Assembly (NCBI GenBank): GCA_000092065.1
Contig: CP000583.1
Direction: 5' to 3' (one strand)
DNA: 64,000 bases
Source of the DNA: Ostreococcus lucimarinus
Taxonomy: Eukaryota
Of the stretch, positions 10,581-61,327 are shown one piece after another; within the stretch, counting starts at the first letter, position 1, and each line of letters opens with the position of its first letter. Made by a program: the position numbers and the translations under genes. Under the pieces are notes generated by a model. It made no database searches. It saw nothing but the letters and a program-made list of their open reading frames with translations, and was not told the origin of the DNA.

Positions 10581-12314
10581 ATGGCACTCGACTCGACGAT
10601 AGATCCTATCTCGTTCGCCCCCGATGAAGCTTTGACGAAACTGTCCAACTTAATGACCCAAGGAGTGAAATACCCGCAACTGAGAGCGGTGGTCGTGAGC
10701 TGGCTCGCCGAGGTGCGCGAACCATCGACTCTCGTTGCGGCGTGCATCGACGTCATCTTCACCACCCTGCGCGATCAGTACGAGATCGGACGCGAAGAAG
10801 ACGATGATGGCGAGTTACTGATTTGCATGTACTTGTTGTTGGAGTGCCTCGGTAGAACTCCCGGAACGCGGGAAGGGCGAGAACGGAGACGCTTTACCAG
10901 CACCGTCACGAGAGGCGTAGTTTTGTGTGATCGAAGTCGCGCACACGTAGGTAAATTGGTACATTCAGCGATGACCACGACAAATGATGTCATACCAAGC
11001 CGTGCGATCGTTCGCTTGATCGAAACATTTGGGCTTGAGTTTGAGGATTTGAACTTTACGAGCTGCGCAGCTGCTGCCGAAGGCGTCTCAGGCTTCGTTC
11101 GACAGCTTTTAGAAGACGGCAAACAGAGCTCGGCCATGGCGCTCATTTTTCACTTCAACCTGGAAGAGTTCGCAACAAATGAAACACTGCAAGGTTTGGC
11201 GCAGTGTAATGAATTTTCACTCGCTCTTGAGTTTGTTCAACTCGAACCAACTCTGGCCAAAAATTGGATTGAGTTTTGCGTGCACCAGGGCGTCCACGAG
11301 CACCATCACGCTGCTTTGCGACAAGCACACAAAGTTGTCACGATATTTGAGATGGAAGCCGAGTTTCCGGACGTGCGCACGCAGTATTACAAGTCGACTA
11401 TTGCGAGAATGATTGCGAAAGGACAATTTGAAGTCGCGCTCAAGCGCGCAGGCGCCGAAATCAATCTTCAAGAGTTTGTTGTCGAATCTCTTGCAGCGAT
11501 CGAACAATTCGAATACGCTTTGGAGTTCGCAAATAGGTGTGGACTAGAGTTTGACTGTGATCCAGTGGAGCTGGAGAAGTTAGTCGCACGCAGGAGAGCA
11601 ACGTTTTTCCAGCTTCCAGAGCATCTCTCTCTCGACGCGAACGTCGTCTTTGTTGACGATGCAAAGAGCTTGCATTACATCTCAGAACGGTACCTCGCAA
11701 ATAAAAAAGACATTGGAATAGATACTGAATGGGGTGCTGCGGTGGGTGAAGACGCGGACAAGGAAGACACGAGTCAGGTAGCTACTCTACAACTTGCGTC
11801 AGAAGACGGCGTAGCAATTTTAGACTTGCCAGTTCTAGTTCAGAGCTGTCCCGAGGCGTTAGAGGCAACGATCGGGCGAATGTTTCAGGACGATAAGGTG
11901 TTAAAATTAGGGTTCGCAGTTCAAGAAGACTTGCGACGCTTGGCAAAATGTCACCCTGCGTCTTTCGGCAACGTACGCAATGTGGCCGACTTGCAATCGT
12001 TGTGGAAATTAGCTGTGTCAAAGGCGCGAATGACGAAAGAGACTCGTGATTTTCCATGGGCAACCGACGAAGAACTGTCACGATATCAACCCGTTGGCTT
12101 ATCGACTATGGTCGCTGCCGTACTCGGGAAACCGTTGGACAAGACGATGCGGATGTCTGATTGGTCGAAACGTCCGCTGACCGCACAACAGCGAGTGTAT
12201 GCGGCACTCGACGCGTGGACTCTGGTCGAATCGCATCGTTCGCTCCTCGCATCTCACGCCGATCGATACATCGCACTAGTCGATCAAGTGAACAAATCAT
12301 ATGAGTTCAAATAG
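10581..12314 (+). CDS. DEDDy 3'-5' exonuclease domain protein (Mut-7/EXD3/WRN-exonuclease-like)
   Basis: Exonuclease motifs IGIDTEWGAAV...VATLQLASEDGVAILDL..., VLKLGFAVQEDLRRLAK, YAALDAW. ATG re-anchored to 10581 (MALDSTIDPISF). Confidence 0.65.
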   Translation: MALDSTIDPISFAPDEALTKLSNLMTQGVKYPQLRAVVVSWLAEVREPSTLVAACIDVIFTTLRDQYEIGREEDDDGELLICMYLLLECLGRTPGTREGRERRRFTSTVTRGVVLCDRSRAHVGKLVHSAMTTTNDVIPSRAIVRLIETFGLEFEDLNFTSCAAAAEGVSGFVRQLLEDGKQSSAMALIFHFNLEEFATNETLQGLAQCNEFSLALEFVQLEPTLAKNWIEFCVHQGVHEHHHAALRQAHKVVTIFEMEAEFPDVRTQYYKSTIARMIAKGQFEVALKRAGAEINLQEFVVESLAAIEQFEYALEFANRCGLEFDCDPVELEKLVARRRATFFQLPEHLSLDANVVFVDDAKSLHYISERYLANKKDIGIDTEWGAAVGEDADKEDTSQVATLQLASEDGVAILDLPVLVQSCPEALEATIGRMFQDDKVLKLGFAVQEDLRRLAKCHPASFGNVRNVADLQSLWKLAVSKARMTKETRDFPWATDEELSRYQPVGLSTMVAAVLGKPLDKTMRMSDWSKRPLTAQQRVYAALDAWTLVESHRSLLASHADRYIALVDQVNKSYEFK

Positions 12315-12341
12315 CGCATAATCCCATGGTTGTTGTATCAA

Positions 12342-14600
12342 ATGTATCAAATAAGCATCCCGCCGGCTTCAATGCTGTGTTCAGTAAGAACGCACGTCGT
12401 TGCACGTCCGCACTCGTGCGCTCGCGCTCGAGTCCCCATGGCGGTCGAAAGCCAGATGAATGCGCTGCAAATAAACCCGGGTAAAATATTGATCGACGAC
12501 ACCTTCGTTCGCGACACCTCGCGCGCGGTTTCGACGTATTGGTTCCCCAATCGAGCGCAAACGCTGGAGGCGGCGTATAAAAAAAAGTGGTTCGCCACGG
12601 ACGATACCGTGACTATCGTGGACGAAGAGATACGCACAAGGTTCGCCGATATCATCCATGCCTTAGAACTCGCGGTTGATGGCGACGATATCGATCGAAC
12701 GCGTGTTTTGGGCGCGCACGCTCGGTGGTTGCAAGCGCCGGCGACGACGGCTGCACTCGTGGTGCTGTTGGACCAGTTCAGTCGCCACGTGTATAGGAAC
12801 AGAGACGATCGAGACGCGAAAGTCAAGGTAAACGATACCGTAGCTACGATAATTGCCGAAGACTTGCTCGATAACAAGCGCGAATGGTTGGTCGAGCTTA
12901 CAGTACCCGAGCAGGTGTTTGTGCTCATGCCATTTCGTCACACCCAAAAGAGTTGTCCTCGCCTGTTGCGATGCTTGGACACGATCGACGCCCATGTAGC
13001 GATGGAGAGTGAGAACAAGGCGTTGTTGGAACGGTTTCGTAAAACCACGCTGCGTTGTTACCAGGATTTACAAGGTAAGCAGCACAAGGCTGGTGATAAT
13101 ATTTTAGAACGAGAAGAGTTCACGCCGACGGAGGGTGTCATGACGGCGATGGCCTCGCACACACTGTACAAAACCATAGAAGCGTTTATGCGCGATAGAA
13201 TGAGTGAATTTGGGAACTCAATAGCCGTTTCGCTGAGTGGAGGCGTGGACTCCATGGTCCTGGCGTATATTCTCAAGCATCAAGGGTACGACGTCGTGAC
13301 GCTTCACATCGATTACAAGAACAGGCCAGAGAGCACGGAGGAGGCTGACTTCGTCGATGATTGGAGCCTGAGACATGGCATGAAATTCGAGAGATGTACA
13401 GTGGATCAAATTAGACGCGGAGTCACGCCGAGAGAGCAATACGAGATCGAGTCGCGGAGAATACGATACGGTTTCTACAAGGAAGCCGGGGCAAAGCATG
13501 GCTTTCCCGCCGTATTGCTTGGACATCACCACGGAGACGTGCAGGAAAATATAATCACCAACTTGATGCGTGGAGCGAATTTATTATCAGTAAATGGGAT
13601 GAGTGACGAAGGTGTAGTGGAAGGTGTTCGCATTTGGCGTCCGATGCTCTCCCATGTGAAGGATGACGTTCTGACTTTTGCGCACGCTTATGGCATTCCG
13701 TATTTCCTAGACTCGACGCCGACTTGGAGTACGCGAGGAAAGCTCCGAAATCAGCTCGTACCTTTGCTTGAAGACATGTTTGGGATTGGTTTATTGAGGA
13801 ACCTCAGCGTTATTGGTGAGAATAGCGAGCAGCTTTCTGAAATGGTCGATAAATCTCTCTTCAAACCTTTTTGGGACGCTACAAAGTCGAGCGACGTGGG
13901 CTGTTACGTTGATTGCGAACCATTCATTTCCCAGCCTATATTCTTCTGGAAACAAGTTATTCGCGAAACATGTCATGGTCTCGGAGCGAGTATGATGAAA
14001 GATCGCTCTGTACGCTTGCTATTGGCCCGAATCAAGAGAGAAAGATCGACAAAAGATGGTTGGTTGTGTTTAAAGAAGGAGAACGCGACTTTCATGCACG
14101 GCAATACGTTTGGTATGTTTACAACAGAGTTTATGCCTAGGTCTGATACCATCGTGCCTGGAACGCCCATAGTCGTGAGCTCCAGTGGAGCATCTTTCGA
14201 TATCGGAAATTGGCATATCGACCTCGAAGTGGTGTCGAACGTGAGCGTCGACGGGAATCAGTGCCCTTTGGAGGGCCCCGCAATAACTGTGTGGAACGTG
14301 CTCGAGAACGATATTTCCTACCACATTCCGTACAAGGACGGAACCAATTCATACGTCATAGATCCAGAGATTAGATTTCCCCCGACACAGAACCTGGATA
14401 CCGCGGTACGGGACGCGCTCCCGCTTGTCGTCCCCTCGGCGCTGAGTTTCGCCCACCTGCCTAAGGAAGACAGACCACCTCGCAAGGCGAACCGTTGGGA
14501 CCGAGCGATGATGGAGCTCCCGACGTGCGTTAAAGTGACGCTTAAGTTTAGGAGAACGAAGCTCTACGTCGTCTCAAATGACGACGACGACGCGTCCTGA
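12342..14600 (+). CDS. DUF924 N-terminal domain fused to a TilS-like tRNA(Ile)-lysidine synthetase PP-loop ATPase; probably organelle-targeted
   Basis: DUF924 signatures FWFPNRAQTLEAAYKKKWFATDD...LLDQFSRHVYRN...VLMPFRH. PP-loop SLSGGVDSMVLAYIL. TilS-like LGHHHGDVQENIITNLMRGANLLSVNGM...IWRPMLSHVKDDV...YGIPYFLDSTP. First ATG at 12342 with a transit-peptide-like start. Confidence 0.7.
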   Translation: MYQISIPPASMLCSVRTHVVARPHSCARARVPMAVESQMNALQINPGKILIDDTFVRDTSRAVSTYWFPNRAQTLEAAYKKKWFATDDTVTIVDEEIRTRFADIIHALELAVDGDDIDRTRVLGAHARWLQAPATTAALVVLLDQFSRHVYRNRDDRDAKVKVNDTVATIIAEDLLDNKREWLVELTVPEQVFVLMPFRHTQKSCPRLLRCLDTIDAHVAMESENKALLERFRKTTLRCYQDLQGKQHKAGDNILEREEFTPTEGVMTAMASHTLYKTIEAFMRDRMSEFGNSIAVSLSGGVDSMVLAYILKHQGYDVVTLHIDYKNRPESTEEADFVDDWSLRHGMKFERCTVDQIRRGVTPREQYEIESRRIRYGFYKEAGAKHGFPAVLLGHHHGDVQENIITNLMRGANLLSVNGMSDEGVVEGVRIWRPMLSHVKDDVLTFAHAYGIPYFLDSTPTWSTRGKLRNQLVPLLEDMFGIGLLRNLSVIGENSEQLSEMVDKSLFKPFWDATKSSDVGCYVDCEPFISQPIFFWKQVIRETCHGLGASMMKDRSVRLLLARIKRERSTKDGWLCLKKENATFMHGNTFGMFTTEFMPRSDTIVPGTPIVVSSSGASFDIGNWHIDLEVVSNVSVDGNQCPLEGPAITVWNVLENDISYHIPYKDGTNSYVIDPEIRFPPTQNLDTAVRDALPLVVPSALSFAHLPKEDRPPRKANRWDRAMMELPTCVKVTLKFRRTKLYVVSNDDDDAS

Positions 14601-14637
14601 AATAGTCATAGTCGTCCCGTCCCCTCGTCGGCGTCGC

Positions 14638-14889
14638 TCAGTCCCCCGTATGCGGTCCTTTTAAAGAAACTTGCCATTGATTCGACTTCGAGTCCATGTT
14701 CGAGAATGCATTCAGGCGATCTAAACCGTCTCGCGCCATCGCTACCGCCTTCTCGATCTCCTTGGCGTCCGTCAGTTCGCGCTTTTGCCTAAACTCAACC
14801 TTGATTTCCTCCACGATGGCCATCTTGTTCTTGCTCGGAAACTTTGTCGCGGATTTCAACACCGCGCGGTACAATCGTACGGTGTCCAT
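14638..14889 (-). CDS. LYRM4: LYR-motif protein LYRM4/ISD11 (cysteine desulfurase partner)
   Basis: LYRAVLKSATKFPSKNK...IKVEFRQKRELTDAKEIEKA is collinear with LYRM4 (LYRAMLRESKHFPS...IRQEFRENKNVTDPVKIQ). An alternative start exists at 14904. Confidence 0.7.
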   Translation of the reverse strand: MDTVRLYRAVLKSATKFPSKNKMAIVEEIKVEFRQKRELTDAKEIEKAVAMARDGLDRLNAFSNMDSKSNQWQVSLKGPHTGD

Positions 14890-14998
14890 CGCGCGCGCAC
14901 CCATGCACGTTCCGCGTCGCTCGTCGCGCTACGCGGTATGCGTCGAATCGCGTCGCGTTGTGTGTTCGTCACTCTCGCGCGCGCCTCGTCGTCTCCCG

Positions 14999-16654
14999 AT
15001 GGCGTCGCGCGCGCTCGCGATCGGTGCGACGGCCACGACGGCGGCGTTTACGGCGTACGTCGCGAGTGAAGAAGGCGCGCAGCGCTCGTGCGTGTTCTGG
15101 GCCAACGCGTTTCCCGTGTACGCGCGCTATCGCGCGGTGCAAGCGCGACATCGCGACTTCGCTCGCGCGGGCGTCCCGCGCTGGACCGGGATGGTGCTGA
15201 GCGATGACGAGGCGAACGAGGCGTACGAAGCGCTGCACGATCAATACGCGACGCCAGTGCGAGATTTAGTGTACGCGATGCGGGGATTTTATCTGAAAAA
15301 CGCGCAGTTGCTGTCGACGCGGGACGACTTTGTGCCGCGGCAGTACTTGACGTGGTGCAAGGACACGCAGGATAGCGCACCCGTGGAGATGAAACCGGGC
15401 GAGGCGAGGGCGATCGCAATAAGAGAACTGGAGAAAAATGGACACACGGACGTGTTCGAGGCGTGGGACGAAACTCCGCTCGGAGTGGCGAGTATCGGAC
15501 AGGCGCACAGGGCAAAGCTGACGAAAAAGTACGGCGGCAGAACCGTCGTCGTCAAGGTGCAGGCGCCCGGAATCGAGCGACGATTTCGAGCGGACATTCG
15601 TACATGCATTGACTTTTGTAAGCTCGCCATGCCGCAACACGTGCCACCACTGGAAGAAATAGAGAGGCAGTTTTTGACTGAATTCGACTATCGCGCCGAG
15701 GCGGAAAATCTCGACGAAGTCAGATCTGCGGTGATGCCGCGGTGGGGGAACAAGGTGTACATTCCGGCGCCTCACAAGGAACTGTGCACAAAGGAGGTGT
15801 TAGTGATGGATGAAGTTCCTGGGAAGCGATTAGTAGACGGTATTCGCGATCAGTTTGACGCCATTGCTCGGTACAGGGGCACCAGTGTGAGTAGTCTGGA
15901 GGAAAATGAGCGTAGAAAGATTGAGAGCGGGAGGTTGCGAAGTCGAGACGCGAAACAAGCGGCGAAACACACAGAAAGAGTAAATACTTTCATGAAACTT
16001 CAGCATCACTTACTGATGCCTCTGAAGCTCGCGTACAACGTGTCGCCTCTTCGGTTGGTGACCGGTCCCGTGAATCGACAACCGCCGCCGAAGCTCGTGA
16101 ACCTGGGAGCGCTCCTTCAAACCTTGGTCGACGTGCACGCGTATGAGATTTTCGAGACAGGAGTGTTCAATGGCGATCCACATCCGGGAAACATCATGCT
16201 GATGCCTGACGGTAGGCTCGGACTGATTGATTACGGGCAGGTGAAACGCATAGACTCTGATGCGCAGCGGGCGTACGCCAAACTCATCTTAGCTGTAGCC
16301 AAAGGCGACGCTGAAGAATGCCACAGGTTGGTGCAGTCTAATAAACCAGAAGGTTTCGGAGCCCGAAGTAAGAATTCAGATGCAGAGGTCAGTTTTAAGT
16401 TGGCGACGTTTTGGAACGATCGAGACACGCCCGACGTTACCGAGGGACTCAACTTGCAAGAGTTTTTGGACGAAATGCAAGCGCGTGATCCGGTCATCAA
16501 GGCTCCCGATGAGATGGTCATGATTGCACGCGTTTCGGTACTTCTACGAGGTATGGGCAACGCGTTCAACATTAGGCTTAGAATGGCCGAGGCGTGGAGA
16601 GCAGATGCGGAGAAGCTCTTGGCGCGCACGGACCCAGATTACTTTCTGTTGTGA
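14999..16654 (+). CDS. ABC1/ADCK (UbiB-family) atypical kinase
   Basis: ABC1 motifs ASIGQAHRAKL...VVVKVQAPGIE, FNGDPHPGNIMLMPDGRLGLIDYGQ. Conservative ATG at 14999 (MASRALAIG). An alternative ATG at 14903 overlaps the ISD11 start codon. Confidence 0.75.
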   Translation: MASRALAIGATATTAAFTAYVASEEGAQRSCVFWANAFPVYARYRAVQARHRDFARAGVPRWTGMVLSDDEANEAYEALHDQYATPVRDLVYAMRGFYLKNAQLLSTRDDFVPRQYLTWCKDTQDSAPVEMKPGEARAIAIRELEKNGHTDVFEAWDETPLGVASIGQAHRAKLTKKYGGRTVVVKVQAPGIERRFRADIRTCIDFCKLAMPQHVPPLEEIERQFLTEFDYRAEAENLDEVRSAVMPRWGNKVYIPAPHKELCTKEVLVMDEVPGKRLVDGIRDQFDAIARYRGTSVSSLEENERRKIESGRLRSRDAKQAAKHTERVNTFMKLQHHLLMPLKLAYNVSPLRLVTGPVNRQPPPKLVNLGALLQTLVDVHAYEIFETGVFNGDPHPGNIMLMPDGRLGLIDYGQVKRIDSDAQRAYAKLILAVAKGDAEECHRLVQSNKPEGFGARSKNSDAEVSFKLATFWNDRDTPDVTEGLNLQEFLDEMQARDPVIKAPDEMVMIARVSVLLRGMGNAFNIRLRMAEAWRADAEKLLARTDPDYFLL

Positions 16655-53757: not shown

Positions 53758-55413
53758 CTACTGCATTAATTCGGCCTCGATTTCTTCGAGCGTTTTACCG
53801 CGAGTTTCAACGACGGTGAAGTAAATCGATGCCAAAGCTAGGACGCCGACGGACGCGAAGCCCAAATACGTGCCGCGCAAGCCGACGGTTTCTTGCACTG
53901 TTGGAAGGAACAAGGACACGAGAAAGTTGCTACCAAAGTTACTCAGCGTAGCCAATCCTACGGCTGCGGAGCGCACCTTGGATGGAAAGACCTCGCCCAC
54001 GAGCAACCACGCGATCGGGCCGAAACTTAACTGATACGCGCCGACATAAAGAAAGATGGCGGCGACGGACGCTTGCGCTTGCGCCGTCGTTTGCACCTCT
54101 CCGGGCGTGTTCAGCGCCGCCAATGCAAACAAACATGCAGTGATGATGCTAATACCACCGAGCAACAGCGGACGTCGTCCCAGGCTGTCCACTTTGGAGA
54201 CGGCGATGCCAGTCATAAATAGCTTCCAGATGCCGAGAATGACGGAGACATTTGCCGCGTCCTCGACGCTCCAACCGGCGGCTTCGAACGTCTGCGTCGC
54301 GTAGTACAGTACGCTCGGTTGCCCGGTAAATTGCTGAAATAAGACCACAGACAGTCCAATGTACAACGGCCGCACATATTTCTTGTCAAACAAACTCATC
54401 GCGCCCGAGCCGCCGGCGGAGCTGTTGTTGCTCACCGCGGCCATGAAAATATCCTCCAATTCTTCGTCAATCTTCATCATCTCCACGTCACTCTTCGCCT
54501 CTCTAATTCTAACTAGTGCCTCACGCGCCTCATCACGCGTGTCTTTCCCATCTCCACTCTTGGACGCGATCCATCGAGGCGAATCGGGCAACCAAATCGC
54601 GCCCGCGAGCAACAAACCGATTAGAGGCGTCGCCTCCAGCGATAGTTGCCTCCAGCCTCCGTCAGCAGTGATCACGCCTTCGCTCGCCAAGTAACCGAGC
54701 AAAATACCGCCCACGATGAATCCTTCCTTAAGCGAAATGAGACTTCCACGCAACGAGCTTGGCGCGGTTTCCGCGATGTACACCGGCGCGCTGTGCATCG
54801 CAAAGCCGATTCCCAAACCATAAATCAACTTGGCCAGAACCAAAGGCTCAAATCCTGGCGCGACACTCGACGCAACACTCCCAACCAAATACAGCGTCGC
54901 CGCCAATATGAGCTCTTTCCTCGAGCCTAATCGATCGCCCACGCCGGCGCCGGCCGCTGCGCTCGCCGTCAACGCGCCGAATAGCGAAGCGCTCACAAAC
55001 TGCCCACTCTGTATGCTGGTCAGCGCAAACCCGTCCCCTCCACTCGCCGCACTCGCGGTGATGTTCTCCAGTGCCCCCGAGGAGATTCCGATATCCCATC
55101 CGAAGAGTGCGCCCGCGAGCGCCGGGAACAAAAAGTTTCGAAGCACCGCAGCGTTGAGTTCACCGTCGTTCCCGCCTTCGTTCGACGTCGACGCCGCACG
55201 CGCGGTCGCACACCGTCGTGCATGACGCGTATGCGCGCGTAACACGCCGCGGGGCGTCGATATCGACTTTCCAACCCCTTGGATGCGCGTCGATGCGCGT
55301 GTGCCGCGTCGCCGCGGCAACGCAACGTTCGCGCTCGTGGACGCGCGCATCGAGCGATTGGTCGTGTACAGCGCGCGCGATGTCGTCGGTGAGGCGACTC
55401 GCTTGGCTAACAT
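53758..55413 (-). CDS. MFS sugar-porter family transporter, plastidic glucose transporter-like, with transit peptide
   Basis: 12 TM helices. Sugar porter motifs (GR.., PESPRW, ...). Ser/Thr/Arg-rich N-terminal presequence. ATG at 55413. Confidence 0.7.
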   Translation of the reverse strand: MLAKRVASPTTSRALYTTNRSMRASTSANVALPRRRGTRASTRIQGVGKSISTPRGVLRAHTRHARRCATARAASTSNEGGNDGELNAAVLRNFLFPALAGALFGWDIGISSGALENITASAASGGDGFALTSIQSGQFVSASLFGALTASAAAGAGVGDRLGSRKELILAATLYLVGSVASSVAPGFEPLVLAKLIYGLGIGFAMHSAPVYIAETAPSSLRGSLISLKEGFIVGGILLGYLASEGVITADGGWRQLSLEATPLIGLLLAGAIWLPDSPRWIASKSGDGKDTRDEAREALVRIREAKSDVEMMKIDEELEDIFMAAVSNNSSAGGSGAMSLFDKKYVRPLYIGLSVVLFQQFTGQPSVLYYATQTFEAAGWSVEDAANVSVILGIWKLFMTGIAVSKVDSLGRRPLLLGGISIITACLFALAALNTPGEVQTTAQAQASVAAIFLYVGAYQLSFGPIAWLLVGEVFPSKVRSAAVGLATLSNFGSNFLVSLFLPTVQETVGLRGTYLGFASVGVLALASIYFTVVETRGKTLEEIEAELMQ

Positions 55414-59671: not shown

Positions 59672-61327
59672 CTAAGGGTAACGGACGCGATGCACGGTTA
59701 ATTGAAGGGATTTCTTGACGAGCGCGAAGCGCTCGCGGCGGTTGCCAGACGCGAAGGCGTCGAAGACGTCGTCGAGGTGGTCCAAGGAGAGGTGCGGAAA
59801 GATGGATAAGACGCGCTCATAGTCCAAATTCTGTGTGCGTTCGCGCAGACGTTCGAACGCGAGGGCGGGAGCGATGATGATGATATTCTTGGCCGAAGTC
59901 GTGCACATGGGCTGGTCAGCGACGCAAACGCCCTTGGAAGTGGCGGCGAGGAGGAGTTCCCGCACGTCATCGACGCTCGCGCCGGCGGCGTCATAGACCG
60001 AAACGAGATCGGACTCACCGCTCGATTGGGCGAGAATCGAGAGCGGGGGTGAATATGTCTTCCAGAATAGCGCGAAGCGTCCGCTCGAGCCGCCATCGAA
60101 TGCGGCATCTGTTTTCGCTAGAGTTCGCATCGAGCGCACGACTCCGCCTTGATGTAATACGCCAAATAAACACGCCAATAGCGCGTTAATTGCGATCCAG
60201 ATCGCGAACAATCGCCGCTTTCGAGAAACTAATGTACTTCTCGAGTAGTGCGCCGCCAAGACGCACATAGGAAGAATCATCGGCGTCAGAAATCGAGGCT
60301 CTTGATGCGGCGCAAGCGAAAGCGCCGCGAGAGGAAACAAAACACTCGCCCAAAGAGTTCGCACGATTAAATCTCTCGACGATGCGTCTCGTCTTCTTCG
60401 CATCAGTGCACTGAGACTGACGAGCCACAGCACGCTGAACATCAAAGGACCATTGACGAGGACGTGCAAATACCTAGGATGTAAACCGTGCCGCGCTAAG
60501 TTATCGGCGTTGACGTTATATCTGAACGAGTTCCACGGCGTGATGATCCAGTTCTTTGACGTCCAAACCCACACATTGAGCATATTCGTATCGCTAAAGT
60601 ATGCCGTGTCGATCACGATGCACACCACCGCGGTGAGAATCGCCGCCATCGCACCACTCCAAACGCCGACCAACATCGTCAGTGGCGACTTTTCTCGCGC
60701 TCTCGCAACCACATACACCGCCCAAGGCGCGATGAACGCACCGCTCGTAAACCTTATAAAACTACTCACCATCCCTATCGTGCCGATAGCGACACAGCGC
60801 GAGACGGGTCCTAAATACTTGCGTTCAGTTGTCGCGACAAGCGCGCAAGCCGCTGTCGCATATGTCTCCAAAGAATTACTAAAAGGCCGAACGAGCAGCA
60901 CTAAAGTCACCCAAGATGTCGCAAACAATACACCCGCTTCATTCACCGCCCCAGTCGTCGCCGATCCCACCGCCCTCGCGCACGATACCACCGCCAAGTC
61001 AACCGTAGCCGACGCCGCGCACAGCGCCAACCGCGGCGCATACGTCGTCACCCACGATACGTCTAACGCGGCGCCCGTCGCCCGCGCGATCGCGCACGCG
61101 ATGAGATACGATAATCCACTACTCGCGTACGCGCCTAAGATTGATCTTGCGGGCGCGTCGGCGGTGTATTCCCACGGCAACTGCGTCTCTGTCCCGAACA
61201 CGTTCGCAGCGGTGACTTCGTTGGATTGAAACCACTCATCCGGATGGACGTATCCAGGCGCGAACGCAAACGCGAGTCTCAAGAGTGCGAGACCGACAAG
61301 CGTGGCGCGCGCGAGGGTCTCACCCAT
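59672..61327 (-). CDS. GT22-family mannosyltransferase (GPI mannosyltransferase PIG-Z/SMP3-like)
   Basis: Signature HPDEWFQSNEV near the N-terminus. Multi-TM protein. ATG at 61327. Confidence 0.65.
   Translation of the reverse strand: MGETLARATLVGLALLRLAFAFAPGYVHPDEWFQSNEVTAANVFGTETQLPWEYTADAPARSILGAYASSGLSYLIACAIARATGAALDVSWVTTYAPRLALCAASATVDLAVVSCARAVGSATTGAVNEAGVLFATSWVTLVLLVRPFSNSLETYATAACALVATTERKYLGPVSRCVAIGTIGMVSSFIRFTSGAFIAPWAVYVVARAREKSPLTMLVGVWSGAMAAILTAVVCIVIDTAYFSDTNMLNVWVWTSKNWIITPWNSFRYNVNADNLARHGLHPRYLHVLVNGPLMFSVLWLVSLSALMRRRRDASSRDLIVRTLWASVLFPLAALSLAPHQEPRFLTPMILPMCVLAAHYSRSTLVSRKRRLFAIWIAINALLACLFGVLHQGGVVRSMRTLAKTDAAFDGGSSGRFALFWKTYSPPLSILAQSSGESDLVSVYDAAGASVDDVRELLLAATSKGVCVADQPMCTTSAKNIIIIAPALAFERLRERTQNLDYERVLSIFPHLSLDHLDDVFDAFASGNRRERFALVKKSLQLTVHRVRYP

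Follow-up and report, generated by a model that had tools for sequence, protein, structure and literature searches.

A nuclear gene of Ostreococcus lucimarinus joins a diverged DUF924 module to a TilS-like predicted lysidine synthetase of a widespread eukaryotic family

The stretch of DNA analyzed here (the window; 64,000 nucleotides) is nuclear and originates from the green alga Ostreococcus lucimarinus. Its plus strand carries an open reading frame (ORF) that runs without interruption from a TTG at 12330, or an ATG at 12342, to 14600. The 756 stop-free codons described in a first-pass annotation of the sequence are indeed present, and a run of this length has a probability of ~4e-13 of arising by chance at the base composition found here. 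The protein-coding part is an intronless gene for a DUF924-TilS-like protein of 720 aa, followed by a TGA stop (12438–14600, plus strand). Upstream, on the same strand, lies a gene for a 3'-5' exonuclease domain protein (10581–12314; PF01612, 69.7 bits), which is not part of the system; its synteny extends to the loci L001–L004, L007, and L090–L092, and it is not the adjacent gene in L008 and L089. Downstream and tail-to-tail is the gene for an LYR-motif (Complex1_LYR) protein (14638–14904, minus strand; PF05347), a neighbor kept in all Mamiellales loci with a Pfam-called downstream gene, including L005; the downstream gene of L091 has no Pfam call on record. The next gene encodes an ABC1/ADCK atypical kinase (14999–16654, plus strand; PF03109, 151.9 bits) and is syntenic in relatives. 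No tRNA genes were found in the 64-kb window.

The conserved start codon is the ATG at 12438, equivalent to M33 of the ORF as first delineated; it is used by all close orthologues and by P0001, an identical database protein of 720 aa. The in-frame stretch ahead of it (12342–12437, plus strand), which the first-pass annotation read as an organellar presequence, is not conserved among orthologues. One of the 7 orthologues from the Ostreococcus clade has a stop 12 codons upstream of the start, the extension in L007 would abut the stop of the preceding gene, and overall the leader extension is missing or broken in 4 of the 7. Only 3 of them have an in-frame ATG ahead of the start, on which ground an alternative-start targeting isoform was rejected as a conserved feature. 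The stretch most likely represents a 5' leader rather than conserved coding sequence; O. lucimarinus itself might produce a minor long isoform from an upstream ATG (12342 or 12372). The 32-codon upstream peptide is basic (4 K/R, 0 D/E), and the first 30 aa from M1 (nucleotide 12438) contain 3 K/R and 4 D/E. Across the family, the N-termini ahead of DUF924 are short (mostly 10–30 residues) and acidic or neutral, those of the orthologues of the window protein being acidic, and neither the window protein nor the family comparison revealed a conserved basic, acid-poor N-terminal extension before the first folded domain. Directly 5' of the start codon lies a nucleotide motif conserved among relatives, GCGCTCGCGCTCGAGTC (12418–12434, plus strand), which hardly differs between the window, L008, and L091 and can be recognized in L007, irrespective of the status of the reading frame, and is a putative leader or promoter element.

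The two halves of the protein are recognized by their Pfam profiles, both above the gathering (GA) cutoff, and the motifs quoted in the first-pass annotation (LDQFSRHVYRN, MPFRH, SGGVDS, and GHHHGDVQENII) all occur where it had placed them. The all-helical DUF924 module spans aa 21–215 (12498–13082, plus strand) and matches PF06041 with 62 bits against a GA of 27 (E = 1e-16), its signatures being LDQFSRH (12768–12788), MPFRH (12927–12941), and ERFRKTT (13029–13049). It has the fold of 2I6H, a solved family member, and the fold relatives of DUF924 are generic solenoids only, with no recognizable cofactor site. The profile match is confined to positions 1–115 of 180, because the bacterial C-terminal motif “RFGRFPHRN” is replaced in the fused form. 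In its full extent, EH..RFGRFPHRN..LGR..T.EE, this motif is found in proteins of Agrobacterium, Mesorhizobium, Brevundimonas, and Ferrovibrio and is missing both in the window protein and in the eukaryote-type representatives (0 of 128). All 128 further DUF924-module representatives are of the eukaryote subtype, and the fused module is, by its sequence, a diverged subtype confined to eukaryotes. Bacterial DUF924/COG3803 proteins (Atu0120, PDB 2I6H) are standalone, ~180 aa long, end in “EH..RFGRFPHRN..LGR”, and are unlinked to tilS, whereas the fused module ends in “KFRKTTLRxLQxLxGKQ” and occurs with TilS only. The fused and bacterial forms share a cluster of invariant polar residues (D, Q, R, H, R, H, arranged as D-Q-x-x-R-H and R-H). 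The linker to the PP-loop domain (aa 216–255; 13083–13202, plus strand), delimited by model secondary structure and conservation, contains the nearly invariant residues I222, L223, and E224.

The second half of the protein begins with a TilS-type catalytic N-domain (aa 256–450; 13203–13787, plus strand), which scores 111.6 bits with PF01171 (PP-loop) and 118 bits with NCBIfam TIGR02432 (lysidine_TilS_N; cutoff 93.6); the profiles of TtcA, TtuA, MnmA, and QueC, its sister enzymes with a PP-loop, rank below that of the TilS N-domain. The TilS motif set (SGGxDS, HxDxxxR, GHHxxDxxET, RPLL, and TRNRIR...PLL) is present, comprising the PP-loop SGGVDS (13236–13253; aa 267–272), HIDYKNR within HIDYKNRPES (13305–13334), GHHHGDVQEN with a T-to-N change (13521–13550), WRPML, and TRGKLRNQLVPLL (13731–13769), and these motifs line up with TilS 3A2K and 1WY5. 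Invariant in all 74 members are S267, G268, G269, D271, S272, H290, R296, G362, H363, H364, D367, E370, N371, R433, R437, and P442. TilS structures are the best match in sequence (3A2K, E = 1.3e-12) as well as in Foldseek comparison (3A2K, a TilS-tRNA complex, E = 2.4e-15 over 503 columns; Aquifex TilS, TMt 0.74). The full-length TilS equivalog NF007942, on the other hand, gives 28.8 bits against a cutoff of 606, and by this profile the window protein is not a bacterial-type full-length TilS orthologue.

The catalytic domain is followed by a helical region (aa 451–535; 13788–14042, plus strand) corresponding to CTD1, the domain that contacts the anticodon stem in TilS, and by a beta-rich C-terminal region (aa 536–710; 14043–14567, plus strand) that matches no Pfam family at E ≤ 1. 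The C-terminal 273 aa are not matched by TilS C-domain HMMs; the structural model is mostly above pLDDT 85 in the beta-rich region, and CTD2 superposes only in part. In type I TilS, CTD2 has a helix-turn-helix and a PxxxRxxxP motif for the acceptor stem; the window protein shows a partial CTD2-like R-x-x-x-P motif (VRDALPLVV, 14406–14432), with P662 kept in 71 of 73 members and R/K658 in 32 of 72. Compared with bacterial type I TilS (Escherichia coli MesJ/TilS, 1NI5; Geobacillus kaustophilus, 3A2K), the window protein is thus distinguished by an additional N-terminal DUF924 module of ~215 aa with a conserved linker, by GHHxGDxQEN in place of GHHxxDxxET, by a larger, beta-rich C-terminal domain invisible to TilS C-domain HMMs, by a full-length equivalog score far under the cutoff, and by its encoding in a eukaryotic nuclear gene. 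A precedent for a second module on TilS exists in bacteria, in the form of TilS fusion proteins that exceed 600 aa (PMC11947777); these differ in partner domain, in its position, and in their bacterial hosts.

The fusion proposed in the first-pass annotation is genuine. The 720-aa ORF recurs in identical form on 388 contigs assembled independently, the reading frame is continuous through seven diverged orthologues, both domains lie on single transcripts in some family members, and the AF2 model of the whole protein is confident from end to end (pLDDT 90.5). Within the Ostreococcus clade, dN/dS is 0.11 overall, 0.18 for DUF924, 0.06 for the PP-loop domain, and 0.08 for the C-terminal part, pointing to strong purifying selection on all modules; the conserved linker is under selection as well (dN/dS 0.15 against L008). 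An artifact, in which two genes were joined through an assembly or frame error or through a missed intron or stop, could be suspected on two counts: in some relatives, gene callers of the prokaryotic type report two ORFs, one for DUF924 and one for the PP-loop (P0270–P0275), and a 2026 paper describes nuclear TilS homologues as “fragmented”. The split calls are calling artifacts, since the two ORFs overlap or directly adjoin each other and sit where synteny places the fused gene. Given the unbroken frame, the shared transcripts, the selected linker, and the single confident model, the probability of such an artifact is practically nil. Seven “standalone” matches from a DUF924-only search, considered as candidates for a free-standing eukaryotic DUF924, were likewise split calls of the same fused gene with the same synteny.

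The fusion recurs in prasinophytes, oomycetes, brown algae, haptophytes, euglenids, Amoebozoa, and ichthyosporeans, that is, in other algae, where a survey had been suggested, and well beyond them. It is present in at least five eukaryotic supergroups, including organisms that have no plastid (oomycetes, Balamuthia, Arcella, Creolimax, and Sphaeroforma). TilS (EC 6.3.4.19) is commonly presented as specific to bacteria; the window gene is a member of a distinct, pan-eukaryotic lineage of TilS. Proteins with PF01171 and PF06041 are already catalogued in UniProt and by JGI under the name “tRNA(Ile)-lysidine synthetase”, and the literature searched yielded no paper that discusses the DUF924 fusion of the eukaryotic TilS lineage. 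The opisthokont nuclear “mt-TilS” (Xavier 2012; Pett and Lavrov 2015) resembles the window gene in being nuclear, in occurring in non-photosynthetic hosts, and in following mtDNA trnI(cau). DUF924 goes unmentioned in those papers; we saw the fusion in the ichthyosporeans Creolimax and Sphaeroforma, and the fungal, sponge, and placozoan proteins may have the same architecture.

What these observations would mean for activity, substrate, compartment, and the role of DUF924 we infer as follows. From the first-pass annotation came the proposal of a plastid-targeted TilS with a transit peptide that lysidinylates plastid tRNA-Ile(CAU), and the setting seems to suit it: the host is a green alga with a plastid, the 32 codons upstream of the conserved start in O. 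lucimarinus are basic and without acidic residues, and P0022, the orthologue in Pyramimonas, begins with a long and basic N-terminal extension on a complete transcript. The extension is nevertheless missing or interrupted in four of seven orthologues, as described above, and the same type of fusion is found in plastid-less organisms. The plastome of Ostreococcus tauri has been reported to contain neither tilS nor trnI(CAU), with AUA use near zero (PMC13494906), and the gene content of the Ostreococcus and Micromonas plastomes is described as almost the same (PMC6486808). Where green-algal plastids use lysidine, they typically carry their own bacterial-type tilS. We regard the plastid-targeted model as largely refuted and very improbable for this gene, and the presequence and the link to a plastid tRNA on which it was built both fall away. 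Other eukaryotic TilS homologues that are expected to serve organellar AUA=Ile translation, namely, plastid-encoded tilS/ycf62, Arabidopsis RSY3, and Plasmodium PfTilS, differ from the fused family in being of cyanobacterial or bacterial type, in having no DUF924, and in being organelle-encoded or equipped with clear targeting leaders. The bacterial-type apicoplast enzyme PfTilS, which in 2025 became the sole characterized eukaryotic TilS (PMC12069591), has a 180-aa bipartite leader, whereas the fused family has none and is present in plastid-less lineages too.

For the family as a whole, the normal client is most likely mitochondrial rather than plastid tRNA-Ile(CAU), because plastid-less hosts have the enzyme and, in the cases studied, it occurs where mitochondrial trnI(cau) does. 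In holozoans, nuclear TilS homologues co-occur with trnI(cau) in mtDNA (PMC4558845), and pedinophytes whose mitochondria are without trnI(cau) show no candidate for a nuclear TilS (PMC12574857). We give a modest preference to the reading that the gene encodes a eukaryote-type tRNA lysidine synthetase with a DUF924 accessory domain, most likely acting on a mitochondrial CAU tRNA. Lysidine synthetase activity is predicted for the fused family, and its mechanism would follow that of bacterial TilS: the PP-loop domain would adenylate cytidine-34 at C2 in a tRNA whose anticodon is CAU, transfer of lysine would produce lysidine, the C-terminal domains would hold the tRNA body, and the tRNA would be switched from Met/AUG to Ile/AUA. 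The architecture places a diverged helical DUF924 module permanently at the N-terminus of the PP-loop catalytic domain, the CTD1-like region, and the enlarged C-terminal domain. This module keeps the polar patch of its family, without the bacterial C-terminal motif, and is most likely an accessory domain for substrate or partner recognition, or for a coupled step, rather than an independent enzyme. Mitochondrial import is only putative, because neither the window protein nor most family members have an N-terminal presequence.

In Ostreococcus the canonical substrate is unannotated, since its mtDNA is listed without trnI(cau) (PMC3873408, Table 2) and the O. tauri plastome is, as noted, without it too. 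The client here would most likely be a mitochondrial CAU tRNA now called tRNA-Met, or a tRNA gene that has escaped recognition. A comparable situation exists in a glass sponge, which retains TilS with only trnM(cau) annotated and for which recruitment of trnM(cau) has been proposed. The missing organellar gene and the missing targeting leader in Ostreococcus leave room for action outside the canonical pathway. The protein might be a cytosolic enzyme that applies TilS chemistry (ATP-dependent amination of cytidine at C2) to another client, in Ostreococcus and perhaps more widely, with a nuclear-encoded tRNA, possibly imported later, or another RNA as candidates. Absence of a presequence across the family, as in the Euglena gracilis transcript, which encodes a member with no evident targeting leader, would agree with this, as would the strong purifying selection on a protein with intact catalytic motifs and a C-terminal domain larger than, and in sequence unlike, bacterial CTD2. 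Many mitochondrial proteins, however, are without a cleavable presequence, trnI(cau) is commonly misannotated as trnM(cau), and the family tracks mitochondrial trnI(cau) in the cases examined. Lysidine is not known from eukaryotic cytosolic tRNA, and we consider a cytosolic enzyme of this kind unlikely. The accessible text of the tRNAscan-SE 2.0 paper does not address a nuclear tRNA-Ile2(CAU) in eukaryotes.

A further possibility assigns the DUF924 module a reaction of its own. The modified nucleoside 2-aminovaleramididine (ava2C) is made from lysidine and needs an additional enzyme, the identity of which was not found (Miyauchi et al. 2024, PMC11938285); the fused module, or bacterial DUF924/COG3803, could perform or assist this conversion. 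Of the species typed by Miyauchi et al., V. cholerae, P. putida, Arabidopsis, spinach, and C. merolae are ava2C-positive, and E. coli, B. subtilis, G. kaustophilus, M. mobile, and the yeasts are ava2C-negative. Obligate fusion to TilS is a classic signature of a pathway partner, the invariant polar cluster is common to the bacterial proteins, and Vibrio, a genus that contains ava2C, has DUF924. E. coli, which is without ava2C, gave no DNA-level match to DUF924 in 5,426 genomes, a negative obtained with blastn only, using a bacterial gene as the query, which is insensitive and not proof of absence. The conversion, on the other hand, proceeds by oxidative decarboxylation, and no cofactor site can be recognized in DUF924, a helical protein of ~180 aa; the fused form is without the bacterial “EH..RFGRFPHRN” tail; bacterial DUF924 never adjoins tilS in the loci examined; and no land plant is among the matches listed, though plant organelles contain ava2C. 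A bifunctional enzyme is accordingly improbable, and the broader proposition, that DUF924-TilS acts outside the organellar tRNA-Ile(CAU) pathway on a different RNA client or, relatedly, that DUF924 converts lysidine to ava2C, is a tentative one that we doubt.

On the preferred reading, that of a lysidine synthetase serving mitochondria, the fused enzyme probably accounts for the reading of AUA as Ile in mitochondria across many protists, algae, and early-branching holozoans, and its presence or absence would for this reason be a useful nuclear marker of organellar genetic-code change. Ostreococcus amounts to a natural experiment, since it retains the enzyme though no substrate gene is annotated; resolving the case would lead either to a corrected organelle tRNA annotation, with a tRNA-Met taken over for Ile, or to a new client of TilS chemistry.

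DUF924 has no assigned function, as the first-pass annotation stated: the literature searched mentions it once, incidentally, and PF06041 not at all. The suggestion that fusion to TilS implicates DUF924 in tRNA modification holds in part. Since the fusion recurs widely, DUF924-TilS is a legitimate “Rosetta-stone” association, and it is the sole functional clue available for DUF924/COG3803. Extension of the argument to DUF924 in general is not backed by bacterial gene contexts. In the loci examined, bacterial DUF924 is a standalone protein of ~180 aa, and none of the 84 loci (80 alphaproteobacterial, plus Vibrio, Acinetobacter, Klebsiella, and cyanobacterial) has a tilS, PP-loop, or tRNA-modification gene as its neighbor. 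Loci found with a 78-aa fragment of Atu0120 formed a sample skewed to Rhizobiales, to which diverse records from a plasmid collection were added. The neighbors are lineage-specific and include a KefB-like antiporter, TctA, dnaJ, folK/folB, LysE, gshA, and glyoxalase. A faint glutathione or amino-acid theme can be made out among them, too weak for use. Bacterial DUF924 genes are also carried by accessory plasmids, with transporters or toxin-antitoxin genes alongside.

The window is nuclear DNA from a 982,987-bp chromosome of the prasinophyte green alga Ostreococcus lucimarinus CCE9901, and several of its ORFs are identical to O. lucimarinus RefSeq proteins (e.g., XP_001416912.1 and XP_001416929.1). 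On the + strand, an ORF is open without interruption from 12330/12342 through 14600; at the base composition of the window, 756 open codons would arise by chance with a probability of ~4e-13. The first-pass annotation, made from the sequence alone, had read ORF 12342-14600 as a DUF924 module fused to a TilS-like tRNA(Ile)-lysidine synthetase and had suggested checking both halves with Pfam models. PF06041 (DUF924) matches the N-terminus with 62 bits (GA 27) and PF01171 (PP-loop) the middle of the protein with 111.6 bits, and TIGR02432, the NCBIfam equivalog of the TilS N-domain, reaches 118 bits (cutoff 93.6); the NCBIfam models for TtcA, MnmA, and QueC all remain far under their own cutoffs. 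On these scores the fusion holds, whereas its start had to be moved. The identical database protein has 720 aa versus 752 for the first-pass ORF, and in an alignment with 15 relatives, the Met at position 33 of that ORF (nt 12438) is common to all close orthologues, with no alignable sequence upstream of it. Among the 15 listed members (of 119) of this protein's cluster, there is no O. lucimarinus RefSeq or GenBank accession, unlike for the neighboring genes, which carry XP_ identifiers; at this locus, the reference annotation may contain a different gene model or none.

The extra upstream codons had been taken for an organellar presequence, a reading that did not survive comparison with the DNA of six Ostreococcus-clade orthologues (67%-87% identical, all in exonuclease - TilS - LYR - ABC1 synteny). 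An upstream in-frame ATG of any kind is present in 3 of the 7 loci, one of the seven has a stop 12 codons upstream of the shared ATG, and in L007, an upstream extension would reach the stop of the preceding gene. Counted from the true start, residues 1-30 include 3 basic and 4 acidic ones and evolve near-neutrally (dN/dS 0.63). Across 74 family members, the stretch preceding DUF924 is usually 10-30 residues long and neutral or acidic, and this also applies to complete transcript ORFs of oomycetes, Balamuthia, and Euglena; basic N-extensions are confined to a few members, Pyramimonas P0022 among them. Given the non-conserved upstream stretch and the neutral or acidic N-termini, neither the window protein nor the family has a canonical presequence. 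Immediately 5' of the shared ATG lies GCGCTCGCGCTCGAGTC (12418-12434), a GC-rich element with an XhoI-like palindrome, which is kept at equivalent positions in the clade loci L007, L008, and L091 even though coding dS is 0.6-1.7, and which may be a promoter, leader, or 5'-UTR element.

The AlphaFold2 model, built from an alignment of 74 sequences, is confident (mean pLDDT 90.5, pTM 0.69) and delineates an all-helical DUF924 module (residues 21-215), a conserved linker (216-255), an alpha/beta PP-loop domain (256-450), a CTD1-like helical region (451-535), and a beta-rich C-terminal region (536-710). Sequence comparison with the PDB places the TilS structures 3A2K, 1WY5, and 1NI5 first; in Foldseek, 3A2K ranks top (E 2.4e-15, 503 alignment columns), and Aquifex TilS is matched with a TMt of 0.74. 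Judged from sequence matches and the predicted fold, the protein is TilS-like past its catalytic domain too. The motif core residues of the SGGVDS PP-loop, HIDYxNRxES, GHHxGDxQEN, and RGKLRN...PLL are invariant in all 74 members. Type I TilS enzymes carry a PxxxRxxxP acceptor-stem motif in CTD2 (PMC11947777), of which the fused family keeps half (Pro in 71 of 73 members, Arg/Lys in 32 of 72). Since this motif is half-kept and the last 273 residues have no Pfam match, the C-terminal region is at most a putative CTD2 counterpart, while equivalence to the TilS NTD and CTD1 is shown.

The same ORF is found, identical, on 388 independently assembled contigs, and nearly all of 472 homologues combine PF06041 with PF01171. 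Carriers include prasinophytes (Pyramimonas), oomycetes (Phytophthora, Pythium, Albugo, Saprolegnia, and Aphanomyces), the brown alga Ectocarpus, Chrysoparadoxa, the haptophyte Prymnesium, Euglena, the amoebozoans Balamuthia and Arcella, and the ichthyosporean holozoans Creolimax and Sphaeroforma, so that the fusion recurs in other algae, for which the first-pass annotation had suggested a survey, and well outside them. Single MMETSP and TRINITY transcripts of family members, marked complete, hold both domains. An exhaustive phmmer search with the DUF924 module against 1.84 billion representatives gave 412 hits; each of the 128 newly listed ones bears a eukaryote-type signature (LDQFSRH ... 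KFRKxT.RRLQ.LQ), none of the 128 has the bacterial tail, and those devoid of a PP-loop are short fragments. The fused DUF924 thus forms a distinct eukaryotic subfamily that, judging by these sequences, never occurs apart from TilS. The window gene is accordingly a member of a pan-eukaryotic, uncharacterized lineage of DUF924-fused TilS, which is already present in databases, where UniProt, NCBI, and JGI name its proteins "tRNA(Ile)-lysidine synthetase(-like)," and on which there is no experimental literature.

A few apparent "DUF924-only" relatives were rejected as free-standing genes, being the same locus split by gene callers. Prokaryote-style callers divide the fused gene into DUF924 and PP-loop ORFs (relatives' loci L005, 2982-4990, and L006, 8001-9075; proteins P0270-P0275), and such splits may explain why nuclear TilS homologues of green algae have been described as "fragmented" (PMC13494906). 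One member of this protist and algal family, P0427, is labeled [quoted passage not shown] (a beetle) at NCBI and seems to stem from a contaminated beetle assembly or from horizontal transfer; bilaterians are reported to lack TilS.

The fusion had also been offered as a guilt-by-association clue to the function of DUF924. For the eukaryotic subfamily the clue is genuine, but its extension to DUF924 at large is not supported. In all 80 bacterial loci recovered with a fragment of the Agrobacterium protein Atu0120 (Agrobacterium, Mesorhizobium, Phyllobacterium, Brevundimonas, Ferrovibrio, and others), DUF924 is a standalone protein of ~180 aa, and phmmer found no PP-loop or TilS ORF within 6 kb in any of the 80; bacteria therefore provide no independent support for the association. 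The neighbors vary by genus (KefB-like antiporter, TctA, dnaJ, and folK/folB), with a KefB-like K+/H+ antiporter as the adjoining upstream ORF in 53 of the 80 loci, of Mesorhizobium rather than Agrobacterium type (Rhizobiales loci L019-L059). More distant records give the same picture of DUF924 unlinked to tilS, the neighbors being a LysE-type exporter, a MocR-type regulator, and a glyoxalase in Vibrio (L093, 5555-6151), glutamate-cysteine ligase gshA, DUF445, and an aminotransferase in Acinetobacter (L094, 3243-4820), LtrA, SDR, and LuxR on a Klebsiella IncF plasmid, and toxin-antitoxin genes on a Gloeothece plasmid. A faint amino-acid/glutathione theme (LysE, glyoxalase, gshA, and KefB-like) may be relevant to the original function of DUF924. 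Compared with the bacterial proteins, the fused module has its C-terminal "EH..RFGRFPHRN..LGR" motif replaced, which limits the Pfam match to profile positions 1-115 of 180. The literature searched mentions DUF924 once, in passing and as COG3803, and PF06041 not at all.

In plant organelles, the Cyanidioschyzon (C. merolae) plastid, V. cholerae, and P. putida, the lysidine made by TilS is converted to 2-aminovaleramididine (ava2C), which needs an additional enzyme that Miyauchi et al. 2024 could not identify (PMC11938285). Being obligately fused to TilS, DUF924 is a natural candidate enzyme or partner for this step; it is also found in Vibrio, and, as weak evidence, 5,426 E. coli genomes contain no DNA-level DUF924 match. 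We nevertheless consider such a role very improbable, because DUF924 shows no cofactor-binding fold for what is an oxidative decarboxylation, the bacterial tail is missing from the fused module, DUF924 genes of bacteria lie apart from tilS and often on plasmids, and no land plant is among the family members listed.

The proposed link to a plastid tRNA substrate is contradicted by the frequency of the family in plastid-less eukaryotes and by the O. tauri plastome, from which tilS and trnI(CAU) are both reported absent, with near-zero AUA use (PMC13494906); green-algal plastids in which lysidine is used usually have a bacterial-type tilS gene of their own (PMC6486808, PMC13494906). The literature points instead to mitochondria: holozoan nuclear TilS homologues accompany mtDNA trnI(cau) and are missing where the lineage lost it (PMC4558845), and in pedinophytes without mitochondrial trnI(cau), the nuclear TilS candidate is missing as well (PMC12574857). 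Mitochondrial trnI(cau) is, however, listed as absent in Ostreococcus and as present in Micromonas and Nephroselmis (Table 2, PMC3873408), so that, if the published gene lists are taken as they stand, neither Ostreococcus organelle has an annotated gene for the canonical substrate. Despite this, all catalytic residues are intact and purifying selection on the gene is strong within the clade: against an 87%-identical orthologue, dN/dS (NG86) is 0.11 for the whole protein, 0.18 for DUF924, 0.06 for the PP-loop domain, and 0.08 for the C-terminal region, with similar values at dS ~1.7. A conservative resolution would be that the true client is a mitochondrial CAU tRNA labeled tRNA-Met; mis-annotation of CAU tRNAs is common, and Pett and Lavrov proposed the same tRNA-Met recruitment for a TilS-keeping glass sponge (PMC4558845). 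Alternatively, the retained enzyme would act on some other client. Its maintenance where no substrate is annotated adds somewhat to the interest of the gene.

The gene belongs to a block of four (10581-16654) encoding a 3'-5' exonuclease (+), DUF924-TilS (+), a LYR-motif protein (-), and an ABC1/ADCK kinase (+), with very short spacers: the TilS start is preceded by one of 123 nt, the TilS and LYR stops are 37 nt apart, and 94 nt separate the starts of the divergent LYR and ABC1 genes. Proteins of the LYR and ABC1 families usually reside in mitochondria. Most Ostreococcus-clade contigs fetched (L001-L008 and L089-L092) keep the block; the exceptions are L089, with another gene directly upstream, L091, where the gene downstream is without a Pfam call, and L005, which shares only LYR and ABC1. 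Elsewhere in the window, two 551-aa ORFs lie 4 kb apart at 53758-55413 (-) and 59672-61327 (-); they encode a sugar-porter MFS transporter and a PIG-Z-like mannosyltransferase, unrelated families whose equal length is a coincidence, and were dismissed as a related pair. G+C content is uneven, much of 1-26000 being at 48%-53% and 2-kb bins in 26000-64000 reaching 64%-66%; low-GC outlier regions are known from Ostreococcus chromosomes.
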